Assembly: GCA_000934665.2 (NCBI GenBank)
Contig: JYFJ02000322.1
Span: 1 to 64,000 of the forward strand
DNA length: 64,000 bases
From: Catajapyx aquilonaris
Taxonomy: Eukaryota
Direction of reading: 5' to 3'
Positions 16,400 through 37,000 of this stretch are shown piece after piece. A model generated the notes under the pieces. That model worked only from the letters and a program-made list of their open reading frames with translations, had not been told where the DNA came from and ran no database searches. The number at the start of each line of letters is the position of its first letter. The first letter of the stretch is position 1. Both the position numbers and the translations under genes were made by a program.

Positions 16400-18178
16400 A
16401 ACAAAGTTGTGAACCGCAATTGAACGTACATGAGCTTCTCCAAAAACTTGCAAACAATGTACACATCATCACTATAAAAGCTAAGCTGTAATTAGGTGTT
16501 TCTTAATACGCTTTCTCATCATTAACCCCATCAGTTAATTTACTCCTAAGCAATTTTCCACCAGCAAGGTGGAAGAACCACCCCATAATTTTTGAAAGCA
16601 CCAAAACTTCGTTGCACAACATTCCCTCACAATATAACCATTATGAAATACGATAATACTACAGGAAACACCCCCCTCCCCCCCCAAAAAAAAAATCAAT
16701 TCCGTGTAGGAACCAGGCGTTTTAGTGTTAAGTTTCGTGACCCTTTTTTCCACATTCTATCGTCCATATAAATAGCCAACGTTCCTTGAAGTCGAATAGC
16801 CGTCGTGTGAAGCTGAACCAAATGGCTCTAAGCTCACGAGACCTAGGCTAGCTATCGGGCGTCTCCATCGTTAGTTTGGTCTCTCGCAAGCAAGCCGGTA
16901 ATTGCCCTCTCGACCTCATAAGGTGCCACCCTAATCGATTGCAAGGAAAAGGGGGGGGGGGGGNNNNGGGGGGGGGGGGGCAACCCCTAGAGTGCTCCGG
17001 ATTTAGGAAATGTCTCTTTCTTCTGTTTCTTTTCTGTTAAGGACGTCAAGGGCGTCCATGAGATAAAGTTTCGGATTTTTTAATAAAAAAAAGCACAATC
17101 TGTCACAAAATATGAATGTAATTAATTGCTGAAAAGTGTTTTGACAAAATACATCAGTACCGGTAAGATAGAACCAGTTTGGGCCAGGAAATGAAACTCT
17201 ACATTGATAGCATGAAATTGGGAGTATATTCTGGAAGCCTCTATTAGGACCTCCCATGAGAGAGAGAGAGAGAGAAAAAAATTCGACTGAGATTCTATCT
17301 CGTGTGCAGAAGGAATGTTGTTATTGAGATGCGGAGTAGTTCCATTTCGGGTAAACTGAAATTGGAACTGGTTCCCTTGCTGATCAACATTTGAATGTGG
17401 GCGTGGAAAACCACCATATCGAACGAACGTTCGTTTTCGGCAGAGCTATTCTACATTCCTATATGTGCTGCGAGTAAAGTAGAAGCAGCAGGGAATATTA
17501 GTTGAACTTCCACGGTTCCAATTTGAAGTCAACATTAAACTTTCTATAGGGAATGACTGAAATTCAGAGTGTTGCAGTACTTCAGTATCCAAGTTCAGAG
17601 CAAACAACACTGCACCTACCTCGCCTATTCATGTACAGTACTTCACAATCCATATAGAGCATCAGGTACACATGTACTGTACATACTAAACAGCTGGGAA
17701 ACAACTCCACAAAATATGTACAGGGTTCTGAACAACAGCATTTGAAGTGTTCCACTTCATTGCTAATTATGTTATGATTTACAGGGCATTTTCACTCTTG
17801 CCTTGTACCATTAGTGAGACGTTACACGAGGCAAAATTATATGAATTTTTTTCGCAACTACGGACAGGAAGAAAATGGGCTTTAAGTGAGGGGAAAATGC
17901 TTCAAAAGCCTTTGTGGCATATGCCAAGAGCCATTACGCGATCCGTTTTTCCCAGAAAACCAAAAGATGTCTCCTTTTCTCAAGCTCCTTGACGGCGTCG
18001 CGTAAATGCCATCACGAAATCGGGGAATTTTTTGACTGTCGCCAAGAAGAGCTTTCTCAGGCTTTGAAATTCCTTAAGAGCAGTTGGCGTATTGTGTCAC
18101 CGTTGAAGACAAAAGTTTGGCCAAATTTTTAGAGCCCATGCTGCAAGTGCTGCAAGGAGTATACTATAAGCACTATCA

Positions 18179-18440: not shown

Positions 18441-18978
18441 TACTATAAGCACTATCACACTAAAATTTACAGCCCTCTTCCTGACCTTTTTCACAAAAAC
18501 TGCTAAAATTCTGCTCACATCTCGCGCAAAACTGCGGGGGAACTATCCTAGCAAAACAATGCAACGAACCACAGAGAGCCAGGATTAGACCCGAGGGCGG
18601 CCGCTTCATTTTGGAAGCAAAATTGGCTGCCGAGGTGCCATGGGACCTCAAAGTTCATGCAAAAATAATTTTGCCAGAAAATTGAATAGTTCGTTAGCTT
18701 ACACTTGACCAGCCTTGCGAAACCCGAACTATTTCTGCAAGAGTGGTATTTGCAAAAAAAAGCTGCATAATTTGCAGTATATGTTCGTGGTTAATAATGA
18801 ATTGATAATTAATTAAAATGAAAATATTGGGAGGAAAAAATTACATTTTATGTTTTTTTCCCCTATTTTGCAGTGTGTACGAGTGAAGTGTCCCCAGAAG
18901 TGAGACAGAGTGCAAGTCTCAAAGTGTTACAGACGTTACGACTTTCTCCACCAGTGCGGTCCATCTACCCCAGCCAAG

Positions 18979-19037
18979 ATTTCGTTCTCAAGCTTCAAGC
19001 AATCATTCACCTCCAATGTCAACTACCTGAGAAGAAG
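18979..19037 (+). CDS. Syn: Synapsin coding exon 1 (domain A start; exon probably begins at 18874)
   Basis: Reads (I/M)[18 protein letters not shown]+AG, then donor gtgagg at 19038. Strong acceptor tttttttcccctattttgcag ends at 18873. Confidence 0.88.
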
Positions 19038-22000
19038 GTGAGGTCCAGCTGCTATTGAGCGATAGTCGCCTTTACAAAAAAAGAAGGGGAAAAAAAGCGA
19101 ACGTAAATCAAGTTGACGTTTCCACTGATGCCGTCCGCAATTTCTGACGTAACTTGAAGACGCTGATAGAACGCTCTTTCCATTACTTATCGGTTCAGAC
19201 ATACCACATGTCACTCTGGTATGGTTCGAACCGAAAACCTGAACGTGTTTGTTATGAAAGTTTTTGGCTTATATGTCACGGATCACTTACATTCATTTTT
19301 GAGTTATATCATTGCAATGACATGTTCCGCCAACTGACTGTTGCCATGGTGAAGAAGGCTGTTAGATTATCCTTGTTTTTCCAACGTCGTTTGATTGCTG
19401 GCTCCAGAAGCACGGCCCAAGGCAGTTGTCGTGGAAACATCCCTCGTTCGTATATTGCTTTTTGAGTATTGAAGAATATAGGGTCAACAACAAGATGAAA
19501 ATTGCATGAAGGATGTCCAAGGCAACACCAAACACGAAATGATATAACAACGGTAAAAGTAATTGATCGAATTTTCGTCCCACTGCTAACTTAGCCATGG
19601 CCAACACTGGCACTGCTAAGTTAGCAGTAGCACCAATGTTGCTGAGACTATAGATCAGCGGAATAGCCTTTTAGCGACTCACAGCTGCAAAATATTGACT
19701 ATCACCCGATCCTTTTGGCTTTCCCCATAAAGAGTCTTGCAAGTCCATGTCAAGTGTGGTAAATATGGGGGGAATTTTGGCCACTCTTGAGCCAGTTTCC
19801 AGACCTTCGATCCATGGTGGCGCCCTGGTGTCGTAAGTTCAAGGAATAGCACAATTTCTTTTTTTTTTTCGTCTGTCAGATTCAGTTTGCTGCTTTCCTT
19901 CGGGTGCTGGAGCAAACATTTGGGGATTACTTCAAATCGGGTGTGGTGGGTGAGTGCTTTTTTCCATTAATGAATCCAGATGAAACGTGTTTGTCAATTT
20001 AAATTTGATCCTAAATTGCAAAATTTGAAAACACGTTTTGGCCGTGCTTATTGTGTTTTGCGATTGCACGAGGATTTGCGAGTTGAGTTGAAAACAGCCC
20101 ATGCGCTTGTCAGTGTCACGAGTTACCGGATATTGATGATCGATACCAAGGGTAGACTCATATAATTGGTTGTATTTTGTTGATGCCAGATATACGCTGC
20201 AGGTTTGGTCGCATTCATAACTGCGATACAAGCAGACAGGATCATGTTAATGCCAAAATATAGTTTGGGTCGTAAAGAGGATTAAGTAAAAACACCAGGA
20301 TTATTATCACTAGTAGCTGTTATTCTAAATACTTTTGATCTCCTTGATCTCTTACCATTTGATGACAGGGGTTTGAAAGCAGCAATCGTAAAAAAAAGCA
20401 AATTTTATATCGCAGGAGATTTGACCCATTCAAGCCTGCAAAGCGCCCGCATTATTGGCCATATATTAGTCTGGCACACAAAAAAAATCTAGTCCAGAAG
20501 CAATAAAAAGCCGGTTTGCGTTTTTCCTCGAGCTGGAGACCTCCCTTTGGGCTCACTTCCGCTTCATAGCATTCATTTAGAGCGTTTCAGTCGCACGCTG
20601 ATTCCCAGTAAATGCGGAAATGTCTGGAAATCCTATTACTCTCCAGGGACACCAGCGGGGGTCACCTTTCTGTCCTGCTGGCAGATGACATTTGCAGGTC
20701 GTCCCATTACGACCTGGGGGATTGACCATGTCTTTTTTTTCCAGGTTTTCATCGGGGGACTTGTCCTCCGAGTACGATGAGGAAGGTAAAGGCCCGGGTG
20801 GGCCGCAGGGTCCGCCCGGGGAAGGAGAAGAAGGTCCAGTGTCTAGGGGCCGTCCGCCCCCGAGCAGTATGGGCGGCGGGGGCATGGGTGGGGCCGGCCC
20901 GCAGCAGAACGACCTGAGCCTGAACCTGCGAGGGGGCAGTAAGACCACTAGTGCCCCTAGTTCTCCAGCCAAGACCAGAGAAAGCTTCCTCCAGCGTGTC
21001 CAGAGTCTCACTGGAGTGGCCAGGACAGAGGCTACTCAGCCTTCCAGACCTTCCTACAACAAGGATAGGTGCTACACCTTATTGGTCATCGATGACCAGA
21101 ACACAGACTGGTGAGTGTCCGTTCATTTTGTCATGTCCAGTGCGGTAGTACATATGTGTCTCATTACAGGTCCAAGTACTTTAGAGGCAAGCGACTTCCG
21201 GGCGATTATGACATTCGGGTAGAACAAGCCGAGTTCAGAGAACTAGGAATATCAGCTGGATGTGACGCTGGAACGCAGGTGTCCATGGCTGTCTTCCGCA
21301 ATGGTACCAAGGTGGTTAGGTAAGCAAACTTTCTGCAACCAATAATTCATCGCGTTATAATCGGCGTTAATTAGCGGACCGCACTTTCCGCCCTTTAGAA
21401 ATATTGCGCGTGTTAAATCCAACTTTTGGGTTCTCTCTTCCTTCTTAATCCAATTTGTAAACACAACTCGACTGCCATCCCGAAGCCTTTGAGTGCTTGT
21501 CGGTCTAATTAATCCTCGACATGCCTTGTCATTTGGCCTCACCCCCAGGCAACAATGTCTGGGCTTAAGCCAGGAGTGTGTACCAGGCCAGTGACAACCA
21601 AATTACTAGATTTTCCCCTGCACAGCCCTGTGAGCTTGGCTATAGTAGTATCGACTATGAACTAGGCGTATTTTTTGTTGTCTGCAACGCAATTTTGGAT
21701 CCTCCATTCAGAAGGCTGGACTAAAGTGGCAAGTGTAAGGTACGGCGTAGGACGTGGTATGTGTTCCGAAATTCCAGCTCCGGAGGAATTTCGTACTGGT
21801 ATGTGCCGAGTGGGGAATATAAATTCGGGCTCTAAGCGATCGTACAGTCGCAAAGAGCAGGGTTTGAACTGGGTTAAAAAATATTCGGAATTCCTGCTGG
21901 TGTAACGAGGTCAGACCTGTAACGAGTGGACTGTGTAATCAGATTATACCTAAGTTATAGGAATTAAAATGAAATGTTTTGATCAACTGACTGTATCATC

Positions 22001-25000
22001 GGAGTTACGGATCGTGATCATATAGGTTTTGGTTAGTTTCAAATTAATTTCCTGTAATAAACATGGGCACACGTGTAGGTTATATGCCCAATGGATCAAT
22101 AAACTCACCGTGTACAGGAAGCCCGTGACCAGGTGTGAGGGAAGCGGTGATTGCAAAAGCGGCCTTTTGTAATTGTGCAATATTTTGCGAGCACAAAGAG
22201 ATGATGTGGTTCCGGCTAACTTCATTCACAGTGTCAATGAAGAAGCCAACTATGCAACATACTCTCTCTCTGCGGTGTATAGTGAGGCTTGCTGCATGAT
22301 TCGCATGAATTGACATTTTAGTTAAATAGTTCATGAAGCTTTAATGTATTATTCACCAATTTAGCTGTCAATTTTTCATGTTTTTTTCTGAAAACTTTGT
22401 TTCCATCATTGGGCTACTATTGGCCGTTATTATTTTATTCACGTGTGACGTGATTACAAAAATTGACACTTTTTTTTGCAATTCCGCAATTACTCATGTC
22501 AGTGACGTTTGCCATCCCCATTAATGTGGGTGTGGGCACGTGCCAGCTTCTAATCTTCGTAAGAGATATAACTCTCTGAATCGACTGGAGTGGTGTTACC
22601 TCCTTTTCGAAACCCAAGCCGAGCGCCCCCCCTGAGCCCCGTGATATTCTGATAAACCCTAACAATGGCTGAAATATCTTCGCGTTGGAGCTTATCGGAG
22701 CTTCCAAAACATAAAGCATTTTCGAGTGGGGGGTGAACGTCGATGTCACCAGGAGAGGGAATCGCGGTCTCTTCATGAAGCAGTTAAACAGCCCAGGCAA
22801 AAGCGTGGGCGTCAACACGTATCCAAGGCAACAACAATCATTAAAGAGGTTCCAGAGCAGGCAAATCGAAGTGAGCTGCAAGGGAAGGGCTGGTCTTGAA
22901 AGGAGCTTAATCCGCCCTAGAGCAGCAGTCAAAATGAGCCTACGGCCGGAAAAGCCCACCCATCACTATGCTATTGGCGACTGGCACAACCATGTAAGTA
23001 CTTTTAGATCTTACTCTGGTCACACACCATAAGCGAGCTTTACAATGTAATAGTTGGAAACACTAGAATGTGTATTGTTCAGCCGATTCAACAATGTTAG
23101 GGCTTATTTTGTCAATATTGTACAGAATTGAGTGGCATTATAGCGGTTATTGTTGGATTATTGGAGTGTAAGCCCAGCTCGTGCGATGGGTAATTTGATG
23201 TGAGTATCAGTTTATCGACTGGTCTGCATTGTGTTGATGATACACTTGGTGTCTGGTTTTAACTGGAACGCACAGTGGACTAGAATACAGTAAAAATAGC
23301 TGCCCACGCAGGATAGAGAGGCCATGAAGCCAGGGCTGGGGGTGAGTTGTTAAAATTCCGATTTCCCTTTGGAGTAATGCGCAGTAAAACCGGGTTCGAA
23401 GGACAGTTCCATCAAGAGAGGAGGCTTTAACACTATTGCAAAGCGTGGCAGAGAACGTTGGATGCACACGATTTTGTCTATCACACGCTTTTGAATGGTA
23501 ATTGGATTTAATTTCAAATTAAATTAATGGCAGATTGAATGGTTGGATCGCCATCAGAGACGCTGGGAATTCGATTATTTAGCCTGAATCTTAATTCTAC
23601 ATTTTTTTTCAAATCCCGAACCTTGTCAGGTGTGGAGACTTGCGAACCAGTCCGAGGTGTCCCAGGACGACTCGATGCGTGTCCGTCACGATTCCCGTCA
23701 CGTCCGTAACGACACTCGCATCCAGACGGAATGGGACACGCACCGAAACGACTTGCGACTCAGGGAGAGGATCATCGAGATGGACAACTGGAGGATCGCC
23801 CTGGTCCGCACCCTGGACGAGACCCAGGAAGAGATAGACGCCATGGTGCAGGCCAAGAAGGACGTGGAGAACGCCCTGTTCGCCAAAAACCTGCCGTTGC
23901 AAGTGGCCGAGGAGTGCCTGACCATACGTGACCACAGGATGGGTCACGACCTGGCCAGGAACGGGGTGGACAAGGAGCTGAACAAAGAAGTGGCAGTGCT
24001 CCAGGAGATCCGGCACCAGCTCAAGACCAAGAGCGAGCAGGGATTCGACACTCTCAACCGCCTCCAGTCAGTCTTCCAGAAGCTCAGAGAAGACATCACG
24101 GACAAGACCTGCGCCATAGACATCGACTACTACTGCCTGGATCTGGACCCAACCAAGCCCAACATCAGCTACAAACCGGAGGCCACCAGGATACCCAAAG
24201 GTGCACATGAAAACAATATTTCTTTCTCCCGTGACCCCAAGAGCTATGCCGGCGGTTTCTGTCTCCATCTGTCCCACCTTTGTGTCTTCTTTGCTCTGGC
24301 TCCTTTCTAATAAACCTAATATTTCTACTGTAGTTGACCTAATGTCTTAACACACACATTTCCAAAAAAAGGTACCATCAGCATCGCGGCCTGGGAGGAG
24401 CACTCGAGGTACAACAAGCTGAGGGCAGACAACGAGAAAGACGCGTCTCGTCGCCTGAGAGAGGACATGGGTCTGACCATAAAGCAGACGGATTACGACA
24501 CGAAGGCCCAGCAGGAGGCGACGGACTTCGAGCTGAGGAAGCGTGTGCACGAGACTCAGAAGGCCATCAACGAGCTGGAGTGGCAGAAGTCTCAGCTGGA
24601 ACAGGAGATCGATCGCCTGGAAAAGGAGATATCGGCCATGGAGGAGGACTTCAGGTCCAGGTCCAAGACAGGCTCGCTGAGGGTGGCCCAGACGCGTCTG
24701 GAGACAAGGACGTACCGACCAGGGTTCGAGCTGGTGCGGGACGTGCCGCAGTACGGCCTGAACGCGGAGATACAGCAGATCGAGGAGACAATGAGGAGGC
24801 TGCAGGCACAGCTGGACCAGTCCAGGGAGCAGCTGAACGAGCTGAACCAGCAGCTGTACATCGTGAACGAGGATCTGAACAACAAGAAGGCCAGTCTAAC
24901 CCTGGAGCAGAGGTGCCAGGAGAGGAGGGCGGCGACGCGACCCAAGAAGGTGCAGGACAAGTACGACCCCGTGGATAGGAACATGGTCATGGTCGGGGTG

Positions 25001-28000
25001 ATGCCGCTACCGGACTTGAAGCCAGATGGTCACTGCCCCTCGAAGTACAACTACACATGAACATACTGATGGGGGATTTCGCATGGAGGAGGAATTAAAT
25101 TCGGCTTGTAGGAAGTAAAAAAAAAAAGTGTCAGACTAACTAAGACATAGTCAGGATTTGTTTGTCTGAAACTTTTTTTTTGGACGTAGGGAATTAAGGG
25201 AAAATTAAACAAGTGGATTTTTTACTCGATGTGCATCAGGTAATTGGGGAATTTGCAAATTTTTGATATTTTCACCTGCAATTTTACGTTTGTATTCATT
25301 TACCTTTGTATCTTAAATTGAGGGGATGCAAATAAATACATTGGGGTGAATATTCATGTCTTGTTACTTATTGCAGATATCTCCTTATTTTCCATTCCAT
25401 GCAGTGTCGTTTTTACCAGCCGAACAACGTTGTTAGGACGGTAATGAAACAACAGGTTGTCATGAAAAACCAGGGAATTATTGTGTTTGAAATGAAAGAA
25501 AATTGAATGCATAAATTAACTCCAATTTAGTGCACAGATTTGACTGGAGGCAGGATGTGTCTTCAGACCACGATTTGATTATTATTCTTTAAAAAAAATG
25601 AACGATATTATTTCAGGTCATTCCGGCCCGACTTCGTGCTCATACGACAAAACTTACGTGACGCCGGAGAAAATAACAAGAACATTCTTCTAGGATTCAA
25701 ATTCGGGGGCGTACCCAGCATCAATTCCCTCAACGCCATATACAACTTCCAGGTAAGAACTACAATAATTTACATCTTCCTTTTTGCATCCTAGAGCACG
25801 ATATAATGACGGAAAACATTTTTTTACCATTGTAAATTTTGCAGAAAATACAGCCACTTTTCCATCCAAATTATAATGCTAAATGTATTTAGAGACACGT
25901 GAAAAGTAGACTTCGGGTTTCGTGTACTTGACAAGAAGCAAACAGGAAATCCTTATTAACAATGGCTGTATGACCATAAAGTGGAAACAAAAAAATCCGG
26001 ATGTAACCCGTAACAAAATTACCTCTAACCTCATTTAGACAGTAAGATGGACAAATAAATTCAGTGCATGAATCTGGACTGTGCCTAACTAACTTACGAG
26101 CGAAAAATCCGGACTGGATACGAATTCAATAAAGGTAGTCCGATAATGCAATGAGTCACAAACGAAAATGTCCTTTCTCATCAATAGTTGATGAGAAAAA
26201 GGATTAGCGTAAACCATTAAATTAGAGAACAGATGTGATAGATTAGTCACGTAAGCATGATTAACGATGGTTCTGGCCAATGTTTTCCAATAAATTTCGA
26301 CCCATGCAGTTGGGCAGAAAAATTTGTACATTTTAGAGTGCTTTGGCCTTTCGTCTCACTGCAATGCATGTCTGATGTATTTTTAGGACAAGCCATGGGT
26401 GTTTGCGCATTTACTTCAGCTTCAGAGAAGACTGGGCAAGGATCAGTTTCCACTTATCGACCAGACCTACTATCCCAACCATCGGGAAATGGTAAGTGCC
26501 ACTCACCTCGCAAAGTGTGTGCCCTACATCGTGCTTCATGTACTCCCCACACTTACGTTAGACCAAACCTTTTCATTGTATTTTTAGTACCGTTCAGCAA
26601 TGGCGTACTTTCACTCTTAAGGCTCACCCTGAAGTGCAGGGTATAAAGTTATTTAACTGACCAAGAGCAAATTTCTTTTTTTCACAAACGAGTCGCGTCT
26701 CACTCCTTAGCATGTGTATTATAAAGCATGTTTTGCTCGTATCGTGAGGATCGTGCATATTTATTCAGAGTAGTTACATATATATGATCGTCGGCACATA
26801 CAAAATATGAAATAAGTATTTCACATAAAGTGCTGAACATTTCACCATATCTGATATTAATTTTTCTGTAGAAATTTCAATATGAAGGGTATAACAAGCT
26901 AGAGCTGATAAACCGAATGTGGATTATTCCCAAAGTAATAAAAATGTTACTTACATGTTCGAATCAGTGAGTAGTCCAAAGTGCCAGAGCTGCTTTTGCT
27001 TGTTATACTACGGCCATTATTTGATTATAATATGTAGCCTACACATATCAGTGTGTTTAGTTTGAAAACCTCCCTTTGAGCATTTTTGTGTGCAGTTATT
27101 TTTTTTATATCGTAATGCCTTTAGAGATTCACTCACGAGAAACGAGATCGAGCCAATTCCATTAGGCACTGGAAATTGATATCCAGATCCAGCACCAGCA
27201 TCAAAGAATGCCAGGCCTGGAAAAGTAGGGCACAGCCGTAAGAGAAAATAATAGGTGCATGAATATTGAACCAGCAATACCAATGGATCCGTGTGATTGA
27301 AGATCACTTCGGATGTGAAACGAGGCCTATTCAGAAGAACTGAATAGATAAATGCATTTTGATAAGAGGAAGAAAAATACGAGATGCAAAAACTTGCATA
27401 TAAACTAATATATTAGTGCTGTATACGTATTGATTGGTAGGACTGAAAATAAAACTTGTAAGGAAATCACTACCATACGACACGAAAAAAAAAATGTTAG
27501 AGGAAATGCTCTAGGAAAAATTAGAGTTTTGTTCCTTATTTTAGTGATGGCAGAACTGGCCTTAAGTGAAAATAAATTCCAACAATATTGTGGAGATTCA
27601 CATTTTATTAGCTCAACATCATTGTTAGCATTGTACAACAATGATCAATATAATATATAGAAACTAATCTGTATGTGGAATAAAATTGTGTCAGAAGAAT
27701 AACTTTGCTTGGTCTATACCTAACTAATGAACACAGGTTTTTGTCAAGTGAAGTATATATACATACAGTACAAGTTCATAATGCCAGGTACTCTACCGAC
27801 TTTTTCCAATCAAGATGTCCATAAATGCAAACTGACTTTGACACACGTGCATCCAAAATTTGCAACATGTTATTCACCTGTCAGTCGACCTATCTTGTCC
27901 CAAAGTTTCACAGTCACATCCAAGGAGCTTGGGAAGGATTTAACCGCATTAAAACGATTCTGCATGTCTTATGGCGATGTTGAGAGCACGTTTCTCAAAG

Positions 28001-34000: not shown

Positions 34001-37000
34001 CTGTGTATGGGTCCGCATTAATATCCCGCAGTCGTGTTACGTTAGTTGAAAAGGTTCTGGCTTTGCACTCTGCCCACCGACATGGCCAGCACGCATTAGT
34101 ATGTCTTCTCATGAGCCAGGATTGATTGCCAAGGCAGCCAACCGCACCGAAAAAGCGTCGGACCATCCGTCAATATTTGAGGTTGGCATGGCCTGCATTA
34201 ACGCGACGTTGTTCTGTCCCCCGGGATGCTGTGTTGGAAAAGAACTGCGACTGTGGTTGGCTGGGCTTCTGGTGATGCTGAGCTGATGATGGTCATTTCC
34301 TCTGGAGGGGTCCATTCAAGGCCCCCCACAGACTACTCTTCCTTCCTGCCACAATTTTCCAATCAGGCTTCGACACTCAACTACCTTAACCTAACATGGT
34401 AACGTCGCTGTTGCTGCCTGACCCAGCACATTTTTTTTGCGACGATGCGTGAACCCCATAAAGCACACGCTTTTGTGCACCTGATATTGTTGTACAGCCA
34501 TGCAATTATGCAGAAAACAGAAGACCCTCTTTTTTAATAGCGGATGTATCACAGGTTCAATTAGCTTGCTTCAATTGATCATCCTTTGTGACGGAACATT
34601 AATGCAGCCGATGCGTGACGAAGAGCACTGTAACTCTATTACTGCTCTATGCTAATTTTTAGAGAGGGATACTTACTAGATAACAATAGGTGCATGGACC
34701 CGTAAAGTTGCACACACGTAGATTAGAATCAGAAGTGCCTTCAGCAGACCCCCATCTCTTGTCATGTCAAGGGGGGGTCTTTTGCAAAAGCCAGTTTCTG
34801 TTTTAGGATCCGGAGTATCTGATGGCGCCATCTTCACGCAACAGTGGCCTTACAAAAACCGCATATCTCCATCCAATCTGGCCCACTTTAAATTTCTCCT
34901 TTGATCCTGGCCAGGGTAACTTGTTGCTTCCGCATGCAAACTGACGCGGTTTGAGGTTTTTTTAAAGTGTTGATGCACGGGATCCATTAACCCTATAAAC
35001 TCGTGTGTAATCCAGGTGAACTATATCATTTGACTCAATTAGTACGCCGACTATTGGCTGGGTACACACGGGCGTCGTCGTCTGTTCTTGTCGTTGTCCG
35101 ATGTACTCGACATATTCAATTTACACACTAGTTTGTGACTATATATTTTTTTTCTGACTTTTTTACGAGCTATGCAAATTGACCTTATACGACTGAGGCT
35201 CATTCCAAATGCGAAGGAGCCCCTCAGCAATTCTCATTTAAGACTGACTGATAATTTACATACTAATGTGAGTGGAAGTACTACATGCAACTTAATTATA
35301 CTAAGTTGTTAGTGTGTTGGAGGCAAATCTGACATAACAAGGTAGTCATTTGTTGATAAGGACCTGCTGTGCCTGTGGGCCCACTATAATATTTTGAACT
35401 CCCTGGAGAGAATTTAAGTTCATATCATGCAGCCTTATGACTTTAACATTCCAAACCGTTGAAACCGTACTCATTGTTTAAGTAAGGCGGTCGGCTTACT
35501 TTAGACGTTGCATCACTTCAGGGCGTTAATTTTTCTCGTGACCTTACCTCGACAATTACGTAATCACAAAAATCTTCAAGGGGACACCCACGTGACATAG
35601 TCCAGTATTATAAATTATAGAACGTAGTAAACCCCTACCCACATATACGGTGCAGTTCAAACATACCATTCAACTTCACAGTGTAGACACTTTTGATCAT
35701 GCGATAAATATACTAATATAGAGAGCTACATTGTGATGTACAGGAGTAAAAAAGGGTTTTACCGAAGTCTGCCTTGCAGAAGTGCTCTTGCGGGTGTTGC
35801 ATTGTACAGGAACAGGCCGCTGCCAACCTTAAGGTCAGTCCTAGGCCCAGGAGAACTGACAGTAACCACTGCCACTGACGCATCGCAGTTGATCTGTCAA
35901 AGAAAAAATAATAATATAAATACCTTGTCAAGCTAAATTGCTCAATTTTTCACTCAGGGCGTGTCCTAAAATAACACTGGATTAATGGCAAAATTGTGCA
36001 CCTTCAGTTCCAGGAATTTCAGCAATGTCCTTCTAACGTTTCCTTTTTTTGTGTGTGTCCATACATTACCGAGTTGACCACCTCCAGTACGTGCCCTGAC
36101 TCTGAAAGTGCCTCCGACAATCGCGATATATAGGCCATCCCCGTAGCACTTGGTGACATCTCAGGCCCCCTTAAATTCCCAGGCCAGAGGCGAACAAAAA
36201 GGACTGGGAGATAGGAGAGTACTGTTACCTACTCTACGTAATTGAGCCAAATCCCATCGCAATGTTCTAGGAGCTTGTGTTTCCAAACGGGACTGACATT
36301 AGGAGGTTGTACAGTATACCAGAAGTAATACTTAAACGGAATTTGCTCTTCCAACAGTTTCGTTTTGGTTTTAGTGCCCAGGAACAGTAACCTGGTCATG
36401 TCAAAGTGCCCTTCGAAAAATATTTGGGAACGTTTGGCTTTATGACCCAAGTGGCTCTCTCTTTTTTTAAAGAGATCGCTTTTACCACTTTCCTGAAGCG
36501 TAAGTGCGCAGTAATATTTAAGATGTACTTATTTTTAGAGTGAGGGAATAGCGGGATGGACATGCGGAAATGTGCTAAATGGCTGACAGCCAATCTGTTC
36601 GGGTCAGGAGAAATTCCATTGAATTCAATGACAGTTAGTGCAATGGCCACTTTATATTTTAAAAAATAAAATATTTCGCCACCAGCTAACGACAAAATCT
36701 TGTTACATCTCCCTAATTCTTCAAACAGGAAAAGTATGTAGTACTAAGCACTTTTATGGCCCATTATAATTCCACAGTTCTAAACAAACAGTAGCTGCTT
36801 GTTCATGTAACGCACGTACTGTAGGCCAGTGTTATTGTACTGCGACTCACATTTTAAAAAAAAAACTTGCGAGACAAGTAAGCTATTATTTCACGTGACA
36901 GTGTTGTTCTTATCTTTCCTTAAAGCCTACAAAGAAAAACCTGTATTGCTATTGCTCGTGCTGCCATAAATTCTGACCTGATCATCTATACAATGCCGGG

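Follow-up and report, generated by a model that had tools for sequence, protein, structure and literature searches.

How is translation of a synapsin started when the exon that encodes its domain A contains no in-frame ATG? This question is raised by the synapsin gene of Catajapyx aquilonaris (assembly GCA_000934665.2), which lies in a stretch of 64,000 nucleotides (nt) of contig JYFJ02000322.1, referred to here as the window. Synapsin domain A carries the PKA/CaMK site controlling vesicle release, and the reading frame that encodes it in the window is bounded upstream by a stop codon and reaches its first ATG only in the second exon. We conclude, with a probability of about 0.72, that the near-cognate codon AUU at position 18979 is the main start of the domain-A form of synapsin in this species. 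The features of the first exon are as follows (window coordinates; a slash within a sequence marks a splice junction).

18874..19037 (+): leader followed by the first coding exon of synapsin, with a predicted 5' end and a well-supported 3' end
18901..18903 (+): in-frame TGA stop, 26 codons 5' of the ATT
18910..18912 (+): in-frame GTG, the first near-cognate codon past the TGA, in the context agaGTGc; a rival start
18953..18954 (+): AG of a second, in-frame acceptor-like site (ccaccag/T; exon from 18955)
18979..18981 (+): ATT, the proposed initiation codon, in the context gccaagATTt with A at -3
18982..19037 (+): coding block, comprising the N-terminal extension and domain A up to the RR/FS kinase motif
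19016..19030 (+): out-of-frame ATG (frame +1) of a 4-codon open reading frame (ORF; MSTT-stop), the first AUG of the exon
19027..19029 (+): CTG, encoding the Leu of NYLRRR, homologous to the Leu that is the Drosophila N-terminus by Edman sequencing

The exon is preceded by an AG at 18872-18873 after a pyrimidine run (ttttgcag/T), and its donor reads AG/GTGAGG at 19037/19038. Re-checking of the sequence confirmed what the original prediction had described here, namely a TGA at 18901-18903 with no ATG in the synapsin frame between it and the donor, a conserved block that opens at gccaagATT with A at -3, and a single ATG in the exon, at 19016, which is out of frame and whose ORF ends with its stop at 19030. 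The first in-frame ATG after splicing of 19037 to 20745 was also correctly placed at 20869, and the next one follows at 20884. The features around these codons are listed below.

20728..20730 (+): ATG within the intron-1 pyrimidine tract (region 20728-20744), in the frame of exon 2 and apt to mislead gene finders
20745..21110 (+): exon 2, encoding domain B and the first part of domain C
20777..20917 (+): out-of-frame ORF of 46 codons opened by the second AUG of the mRNA; its end lies 3' of the in-frame ATGs at 20869 and 20884
20869..20871 (+): first ATG in the synapsin frame; initiation here would yield a protein without domain A

The identity of the gene is clear. Pfam searches with the exon translations matched PF02078 (Synapsin N-terminal; E 5e-16 and 2e-12) and PF02750 (Synapsin_C, ATP-binding; E 7e-31 and 3e-39), all well above the cut-offs. 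When more than 120 arthropod synapsins were compared with the window by tblastn, the 15 best-scoring showed 62-73% identity, so that no close annotated relative is present in the collections searched. Counted from the ATT, the frame stays open for 191 codons across the exons with canonical borders (18874-19037, 20745-21110 and 21170-21319), and the in-silico junctions, with AG/GT borders, read RRR/FSSGDL and NTDW/SKYF. The first of these junctions (NYLRRR/FSSGDL, after splicing of 19037 to 20745) rebuilds the RRxS kinase motif of domain A, which is also found in relatives. A stretch of 45 codons without ATG is, taken alone, not unusual. What goes beyond chance, as judged from the sequences, is that a conserved domain-A coding block lies 5' of every in-frame ATG and that this arrangement recurs in all the related DNA found.

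To collect such DNA, metagenome contigs were scanned with profile A1, an alignment of the N-terminal block, which yielded 14 loci (L001-L014). According to their likeness to named proteins, these were termite-like (L001-L007), ant-like (L008 and L009), cladoceran-like (L012-L014, matching the Daphnia protein P0158) or unassigned (L010 and L011). Together with the window they make 15 sequences, of which 11 are distinct, from about six lineages including that of the window. The codon at the start position is ATT in all 15, and none of them has an ATG between the in-frame stop and this ATT. The distance of the stop varies widely, from 3 codons 5' of the ATT in L011 (TAA) and 4 in L006/L007 (TAA) and L014 (TAG), through 12 in L012/L013, 24 in L001-L005 (TGA) and 26 in the window (TGA), to 33 in L010 and 40 in L008/L009; all the termite-like loci share the TGA at 24 codons, to which L006/L007 add their nearer TAA. 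Leaving aside AAG and AGG, ATT is the only near-cognate codon common to all loci, and in L010 it is the sole one in 33 codons. After removal of the near-duplicates L002, L003, L007 and L009, no ATG in any frame was present within 128 nt 5' of the ATT in any of the 11 distinct sequences. CAA[G/A/C] stands directly 5' of the ATT in the window, in the termite-like and ant-like sequences, in L011 and in an octopus sequence (PMC6817820). Separately, an element ATCGGGAAC[C/G]AAC is common to the termite-like loci L001-L007, about 100 nt 5' of the ATT, and to the cladoceran-like L012/L013; neither this element nor the motif GGATCGGGAACSAAC, likewise common to termite-like and cladoceran-like loci, was found near exon 1 of the window.

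One of the unassigned loci shows the arrangement without introns. L011 is an intron-less contig of 2669 nt that carries an uninterrupted synapsin ORF of 547 codons (Pfam Synapsin and Synapsin_C) followed by an A/T-rich tail, and is for these reasons transcript-derived or a retrocopy of a transcript. There is no ATG in its first 297 nt, a TAA stands 3 codons before the ATT, the first ATG is the same out-of-frame AATGTC as in the window, and the first in-frame ATG lies past domain A. The exon 1/2 junction is already joined in L011 (CGA AG/G TTC TCC, encoding RR/FSSGD), as predicted for the window, and the sequence continues upstream through the region that matches the acceptor-like site of the window before 18955. 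L011 comes from a divergent arthropod, with about 50% identity to insect synapsins, and its block reads K-I-PFSTFK.

Proteins give the same picture at a wider scale. Exon 2 as a query retrieved arthropod synapsins, profile A1 retrieved 117 proteins (from spiders, ticks, Daphnia and Drosophila, and mollusc-like ones), and 184 proteins were collected in total. No taxa were gained with the exon-1 ORF, which as a single query gave 3 matches from 4 scored candidates and against the protein representatives 6 matches, P0122 being the sole synapsin exon and the others looking like repetitive proteins. The block [x]-SFSSF[KR]..F....NYL[KR][KR] is kept in 110 of the 184 proteins; six more with a partial block were not counted, and the other 68 start downstream or with other first exons. 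At the position of the ATT these 110 proteins have Ile (66), Leu (37) or Met (7) and no other residue, and wherever it is Met it is residue 1 (7/7; Megaselia abdita P0180 and six others, all fly-like and beginning MNFSSFK). The start M-[NS]-FS[SN]FK that the original prediction had given for invertebrate synapsins is real, being found in these seven and, as MSFSNFK, in the Aplysia sequences given in a supplement of PMC6817820. The preceding residue is Thr (59), Lys (24), Asn (18) or Ala (2) among 103 proteins, and since the codons for all four begin with A or G, the base at -3 is a purine in 103 of 103.

The start codons themselves vary by single bases. Three lepidopteran models (P0006, P0071 and P0091) read the exon in the +2 frame (...NPV[VF]LKLP..., where the same frame of the window reads ...QDFVLKLQ...), and their Pro-Val fixes the first base of the Leu codon as C and its third as G, so that this codon is predicted to be CTG. 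For Drosophila Syn, too, a CUG start is given by FlyBase, whose table of non-AUG starts (in the supplement of PMC4528330) refers to Klagges et al. 1996. Thus, the codons across taxa are ATG, ATT and CTG, with CTG in Drosophila by the FlyBase entry and in the three Lepidoptera by deduction from their models. Such single-base neighbours are what would be expected of a start codon drifting between cognate and near-cognate forms. The comparison of this codon across relatives, which had been proposed as a check together with the claim that a near-cognate start is conserved with AUU as the local codon, favours a near-cognate start at 18979, with ATT in 15/15 DNA sequences and Ile, Leu or Met in 110/110 proteins.

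Gene models of relatives bear the marks of annotation by ATG only. At least 13 models with the block carry the label 'partial' in their source, several of them (e.g. Cryptotermes, ants) beginning right after the upstream stop seen in related DNA. Many other models of relatives start in domain B or in intron sequence. Intron-derived starts like the 20728 ATG of the window were also seen in database models of relatives, for example MFCIVFRFSSGDL. Annotation of this kind cuts off domain A or swaps in invented sequence, and arthropod synapsins would gain correct N-termini if the ATT/CTG start were recognised.

We then compared substitution patterns on the two sides of the ATT. Among the termite-like loci, the 75 nt before it contain six variable sites, distributed 3/2/1 over codon positions 1/2/3 and including a nonsense change (CAA to TAA), and the 62 nt after it contain none. 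L012 and L013 differ at five sites in 36 nt upstream and at one site, a third position, in 62 nt downstream. Across the six lineages, the variable columns by codon position number 6/3/12 in the 18 codons after the ATT and 17/17/18 in the 54 nt before it (ungapped register), and in a MAFFT alignment the cross-lineage conservation starts about 10 nt before the ATT. Initiation at the ATT, or a little 5' of it, would be expected to leave such a pattern of constraint.

Several features by which near-cognate ORFs are recognised were found: conserved coding sequence 5' of the first in-frame AUG, a bounding stop, a purine at -3 and a leader free of AUG. The CAAG context of the AUU, with A at -3, resembles the arthropod start consensus. 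In the proposed mechanism, the 43S complex would scan the AUG-free leader and initiate at AUU 18979 in this context, with initiator Met-tRNA being used at the near-cognate codon. Any ribosome that scans past the AUU would reach two AUGs in the wrong frame, at 19016 (4 codons) and at 20777 (46 codons), ahead of the first one in frame. Functional synapsin is for this reason probably made mainly from the AUU, which is probably required for substantial synthesis of the protein and certainly for its domain-A form. From these features we infer that ribosomes start at the AUU, where the 5' end of exon 1 lies, and whatever regulatory role the weak codon or the small ORF may have.

The small ORF is itself conserved. 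The sequence AATGT and the closing TGA (YTG+A) of the 4-codon ORF are present in all 15 sequences, and the mini-ORF originates from the way the protein is coded, Asn-Val as AAT GTN giving the ATG and YTG followed by A giving the stop. The codon of this Asn is AAT in 15/15, and the next Asn codon varies between AAC and AAT; the Leu codon of NYLRRR is CTG or TTG in 15/15. The three mis-framed lepidopteran models (...QCQLPE...) imply AAT and CTG at the mini-ORF too. Selection may be acting on the mini-ORF, on a second near-cognate start or on an RNA element, and leaky scanning into the ORF, as the original prediction proposed, could limit output.

Several observations weigh against initiation at the AUU. 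AUU is a weak initiator in reporter systems, and the base at +4 of this codon is U. A downstream RNA hairpin, which Kozak in 1990 reportedly described as an aid to weak start codons and which is an optional feature, was unsupported when the window mRNA, spliced in silico, and L011 were folded (z -0.5 to +1.4). The counted sequences are interrelated, with many from Lepidoptera, Hymenoptera and Coleoptera, so the counts overstate their independence. The Lys-Ile pair is internal, about 17-20 codons after an AUG, in the millipede-like P0014 (MADQESS...AAKISFSSF), a transcript ORF with 72% identity to a Chamberlinius protein, and in the mollusc-like P0181 and P0184 (MAD/MAA...); its conservation could therefore partly reflect protein function. 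In-frame conservation extends 10-25 codons upstream of the block in Hymenoptera, Lepidoptera, Coleoptera, Diptera and ticks, and the window and the termites share V.[VI]S.C.R...CGP in frame with a gap of 6 codons. Finally, the acceptor-like site that gives an exon start at 18955 is in frame. In other searches of this region, an inverted-repeat search over 18850-20760 found no arm within the coding part of exon 1 and no candidate editing-type duplex between the exon end and intron 1, and Rfam over 18500-19300 gave merely two sub-threshold matches resembling small nucleolar RNAs.

Some of these observations suggest that the N-terminus has a more varied history in other groups. An AUG-started N-terminus, MAD[QK]E...AAK before ISFSSFR, is common to P0014, P0181 and P0183-P0185, which suggests that an upstream AUG was probably ancestral and was lost in pancrustaceans and cephalopods. 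In the ant-like L008, a second CAAGATT lies 19 codons 5' of the conserved ATT; it may be an upstream AUU start giving a Cys-rich extension in the holometabolan orders with upstream conservation, so some lineages may start further upstream. Upstream in-frame blocks of holometabolan insects read KITGRGGCAKYCGT..., VKIDRSGCPGICGP... and NISAI.AGCGRICAPP... (P0056, P0066, P0095, P0164, P0160; L008 at about 567-632). At the other end of exon 1, an 8-residue piece SS[VA]EALRR lies between NYLKR and FSSGDL in some lepidopteran models, and other models start with it (P0012, P0067, P0117, P0120, P0149-P0151); it resembles a cassette or alternative exon by which the RRFS motif is restored.

The shared upstream motif leads to the first alternative, a start at the in-frame GUG 18910 (agaGUGc), which would add 23 residues including the Cys...Cys-Gly-Pro motif and leave Ile 18979 internal. 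No other near-cognate lies between the TGA and this GTG, which has A at -3, the upstream regions of the window and the termites align in frame around their 18-nt gap, insects widely possess a Cys motif 5' of the block, and the termite-like L001 has a GTG at a similar place, 20 codons 5' of the ATT. However, a TAA lies between that GTG and the ATT in L006/L007, stops stand 3-4 codons before the ATT in L011 and L014, the upstream substitutions of the termite-like loci show no third-position bias and include the nonsense change, the upstream alignment of the cladoceran-like L014 with L012 has a gap that is not a multiple of three, and cross-lineage conservation upstream is weak. We therefore consider a GUG start improbable.

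An ordinary start is conceivable if the mRNA uses the 18955 acceptor and an upstream exon supplies an in-frame AUG, giving an N-terminus of the ancestral MAD.E... type. The site, ctttctccaccag followed by TGC, is acceptor-like and in frame, and the millipede-like and mollusc-like sequences do have an AUG 17-20 codons before the same Lys-Ile. The original prediction had itself named such an exon as an outcome that would overturn it, but when the AUG-bearing N-termini of relatives, which are short peptides, were compared with window positions 1-20744 by low-stringency tblastn, only chance-level matches were obtained outside exon 1. In addition, L011 and, in the available parts of PMC6817820, the octopus complementary DNA (cDNA) run through the corresponding region with in-frame stops, and the acceptor-like sites of relatives are not conserved in position or phase. 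On this evidence the ordinary start, like the GUG start, is unlikely.

Initiation further downstream, at CUG 19027 (the Leu of NYLRRR), alone or beside the AUU, draws on work in Drosophila. The available text of PMC1660579 gives the CTG-encoded Leu of LKRGFSS as the Edman N-terminus of Drosophila synapsin, with N-terminal peptides beginning LKRR/LKRG, and this Leu lies 16 codons downstream of the position homologous to the ATT of the window; in the 15 sequences the NYLRRR Leu codon is always one of two near-cognates. But the block between ATT and CTG evolves as coding sequence and is conserved from molluscs to insects, CUG 19027 has T at -3 in the window, an out-of-frame AUG lies between AUU and CUG, and the G of YTG may have been retained for a different reason. 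In Drosophila, the later numbering is also shifted by +16, the sites being given in PMC4749839, as far as its available text goes, as S22/S549 with 'loc. cit. S6/S533'. The Drosophila proteins P0164 and P0175 keep the block as ...STL-NFSSFKSSFTSNVNFLKRRFSSGDL, with Leu at the position of the window's Ile, and the shift equals the gap between their two Leu codons (...STL-NFSSFKSSFTSNVNF-LKRRFS), so the current numbering appears to start at the codon homologous to the ATT. The statement of the original prediction that Drosophila Syn is reported to start at a CUG at this very position is only partly right: it fits the renumbering from S6 to S22 but not the Edman N-terminus 16 codons downstream. 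For the window, we give the CUG only a slight chance.

It is also quite improbable that no near-cognate is used at all, so that translation starts at AUG 20869, or at ATG 20728 from an intronic promoter, with domain A absent and exon 1 a mere leader. These are the first in-frame ATGs, and among relatives many models in the databases begin downstream, within domain B. Those model starts, however, reflect annotation pipelines that accept ATG alone; the conservation of domain A has a coding signature, and two out-of-frame AUGs precede 20869, with the second ORF running past it (its stop, ending at 20917, is beyond both 20869 and 20884). That the ATT is an assembly error or rare allele of ATG, which had also been named as a way to refute the prediction, is scarcely credible, since ATT stands in all 14 related loci and in the octopus cDNA and genomic sequence presented in PMC6817820, and nothing other than the single-base distance between ATT and ATG speaks for it.

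Returning to initiation at the AUU, the retention of a weak start, over hundreds of millions of years, by a neuronal gene with high expression suggests that translational control has been selected for. A more far-reaching proposal, which we offer tentatively and regard as doubtful, is that synapsin contains an ancient translational control module predating the split of molluscs and arthropods. Such a module would combine three parts: a weak but obligatory AUU/CUG start, set in a strong context where an AUG-free leader ends; 37 nt downstream of it, an invariant mini-ORF with an out-of-frame AUG (AAUGU..., with YUG-A as its end); and the Leu codon of NYL[KR]RR as another near-cognate. It would tie the amount of synapsin, or the ratio of its N-terminal forms, to the stringency of start-codon selection in neurons. 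If this were true, the published octopus ATC (8 codons upstream) and the older Drosophila CTG (16 downstream) would both be off the conserved site.

The remainder of the gene extends across much of the window. The tblastn matches place exons at about 18973-19038, 20743-21111, 21171-21320, 25594-25782, 26369-26509, 49239-49508, 49583-49849 and 51162-51260, and the C-terminal domain E is present, an ORF at 50898-51263 carrying its terminal sequence. The exons downstream of exon 2 are as follows.

21170..21319 (+): exon 3, encoding the Synapsin N-terminal domain (PF02078)
25594..25782 (+): exon 4, with approximate limits taken from tblastn
26369..26509 (+): exon 5, approximate
49269..49508 (+): Synapsin_C exon, approximate
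49583..49849 (+): Synapsin_C exon, approximate
51162..51260 (+): last coding exon, domain E

One other gene and one candidate were seen inside the introns of synapsin. A tektin gene lies on the same strand within intron 3 (23588-25060, +), where two ORFs span Pfam Tektin positions 5-198 (E 1.5e-53) and 193-381 (E 1.3e-55). On the opposite strand, a TIMP-like first exon, with a signal-like stretch followed by CSC..HPQ..FC, lies at 35713-35949 (-) in the intron 26510-49238; this one exon was examined, and its ORF matches PF00965 with E 4e-4 and 20.6 bits, under the cut-off of 23.1 bits. In flies and vertebrates, an intron of synapsin houses a TIMP gene in antisense orientation, and the position of the TIMP-like exon fits this nesting. 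The window also contains short runs of N at 262 and at 16964-16967, and a long trinucleotide microsatellite (TAT/ATT-type) at about 42150-42270 that gives rise to poly-Y, poly-I, poly-L and poly-N ORFs.

Non-AUG starts of synapsin are already in print for Drosophila and cephalopods. In the literature searched, no paper was found on an AUU start of an arthropod synapsin or on cross-phylum conservation of the codon; Klagges 1996, Niewalda 2015, Godenschwege 2004 and Nuwal 2011 were outside this search. Within the same scope we did not meet the occurrence of the same ATT from octopus to water fleas, termites, ants and the window, its homology to Met-1 of Aplysia and some flies, or the retention of the adjoining mini-ORF and the YTG Leu.

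Among the closest known systems is Drosophila Syn. As far as the available sources describe it, it belongs to the same family and resembles the window in having its first ATG past domain A, a near-cognate start and an exon junction inside the RR/FS motif; it differs in that its codon is CUG rather than AUU and in that its Edman N-terminus is at the second Leu.

Cephalopod synapsins are another close system. For Octopus vulgaris, O. bimaculoides and Loligo pealei, the available parts of PMC6817820 (Maiole et al. 2019) report that translation starts at an Ile-encoding non-AUG codon with a stop upstream, and describe this unusual start as confined to mollusc synapsins. The initiator named there is an ATC right after the stop, 8 codons 5' of the conserved ATT (IVPTKPVK-I), the octopus sequence in supplementary file 1 being TAA ATC GTT CCA ACA AAA CCC GTC AAA ATT TCG TTC TCA. 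Compared with the window (GCC AAG ATT TCG TTC TCA), the octopus GTC AAA ATT TCG TTC TCA has 12 identical bases from the ATT on, which indicates that the conserved Ile is encoded by ATT in a mollusc too. In supplementary file 4, Octopus reads IVPTKPVK-I-SFSTFK and Loligo ...QTAK-I-SFSGFR, and the VK-I-SFSTFK of Octopus aligns with AK-I-SFSSFK in the window. The cephalopod case thus differs from the window in being a mollusc rather than an arthropod and in that its published initiator is the upstream ATC, not the conserved ATT.

Standard starts at the same place are known as well. According to supplementary file 4, Aplysia californica Syn8.2 and Syn2.1 begin MSFSNFKDSF..., with Met exactly at the ATT position; like the fly-like MNFSSFK proteins, they share the block and its starting point with the window but use AUG. 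Other Aplysia isoforms, Helix, amphioxus and vertebrates begin there at a second site, MN[YF]LRRR. This second Met, which is ancestral, still precedes NYLRRR in Aplysia 11.1 and 7.1 (MNYLRRR...); in the window its place is taken by Val (GTC).

Beyond synapsin, Drosophila NAT1, the eIF4G2 homologue, is listed with AUU in the FlyBase table (supplement of PMC4528330), and non-AUG N-terminal extensions of human genes were described by Ivanov et al. 2011, as cited in PMC4528330. As presented in these sources, NAT1 and the human genes share with the window a near-cognate codon, a purine at -3 and coding-type conservation before the first AUG. They are unrelated to synapsin, however, and in synapsin the near-cognate start is seemingly the sole route to the N-terminus rather than an alternative extension.

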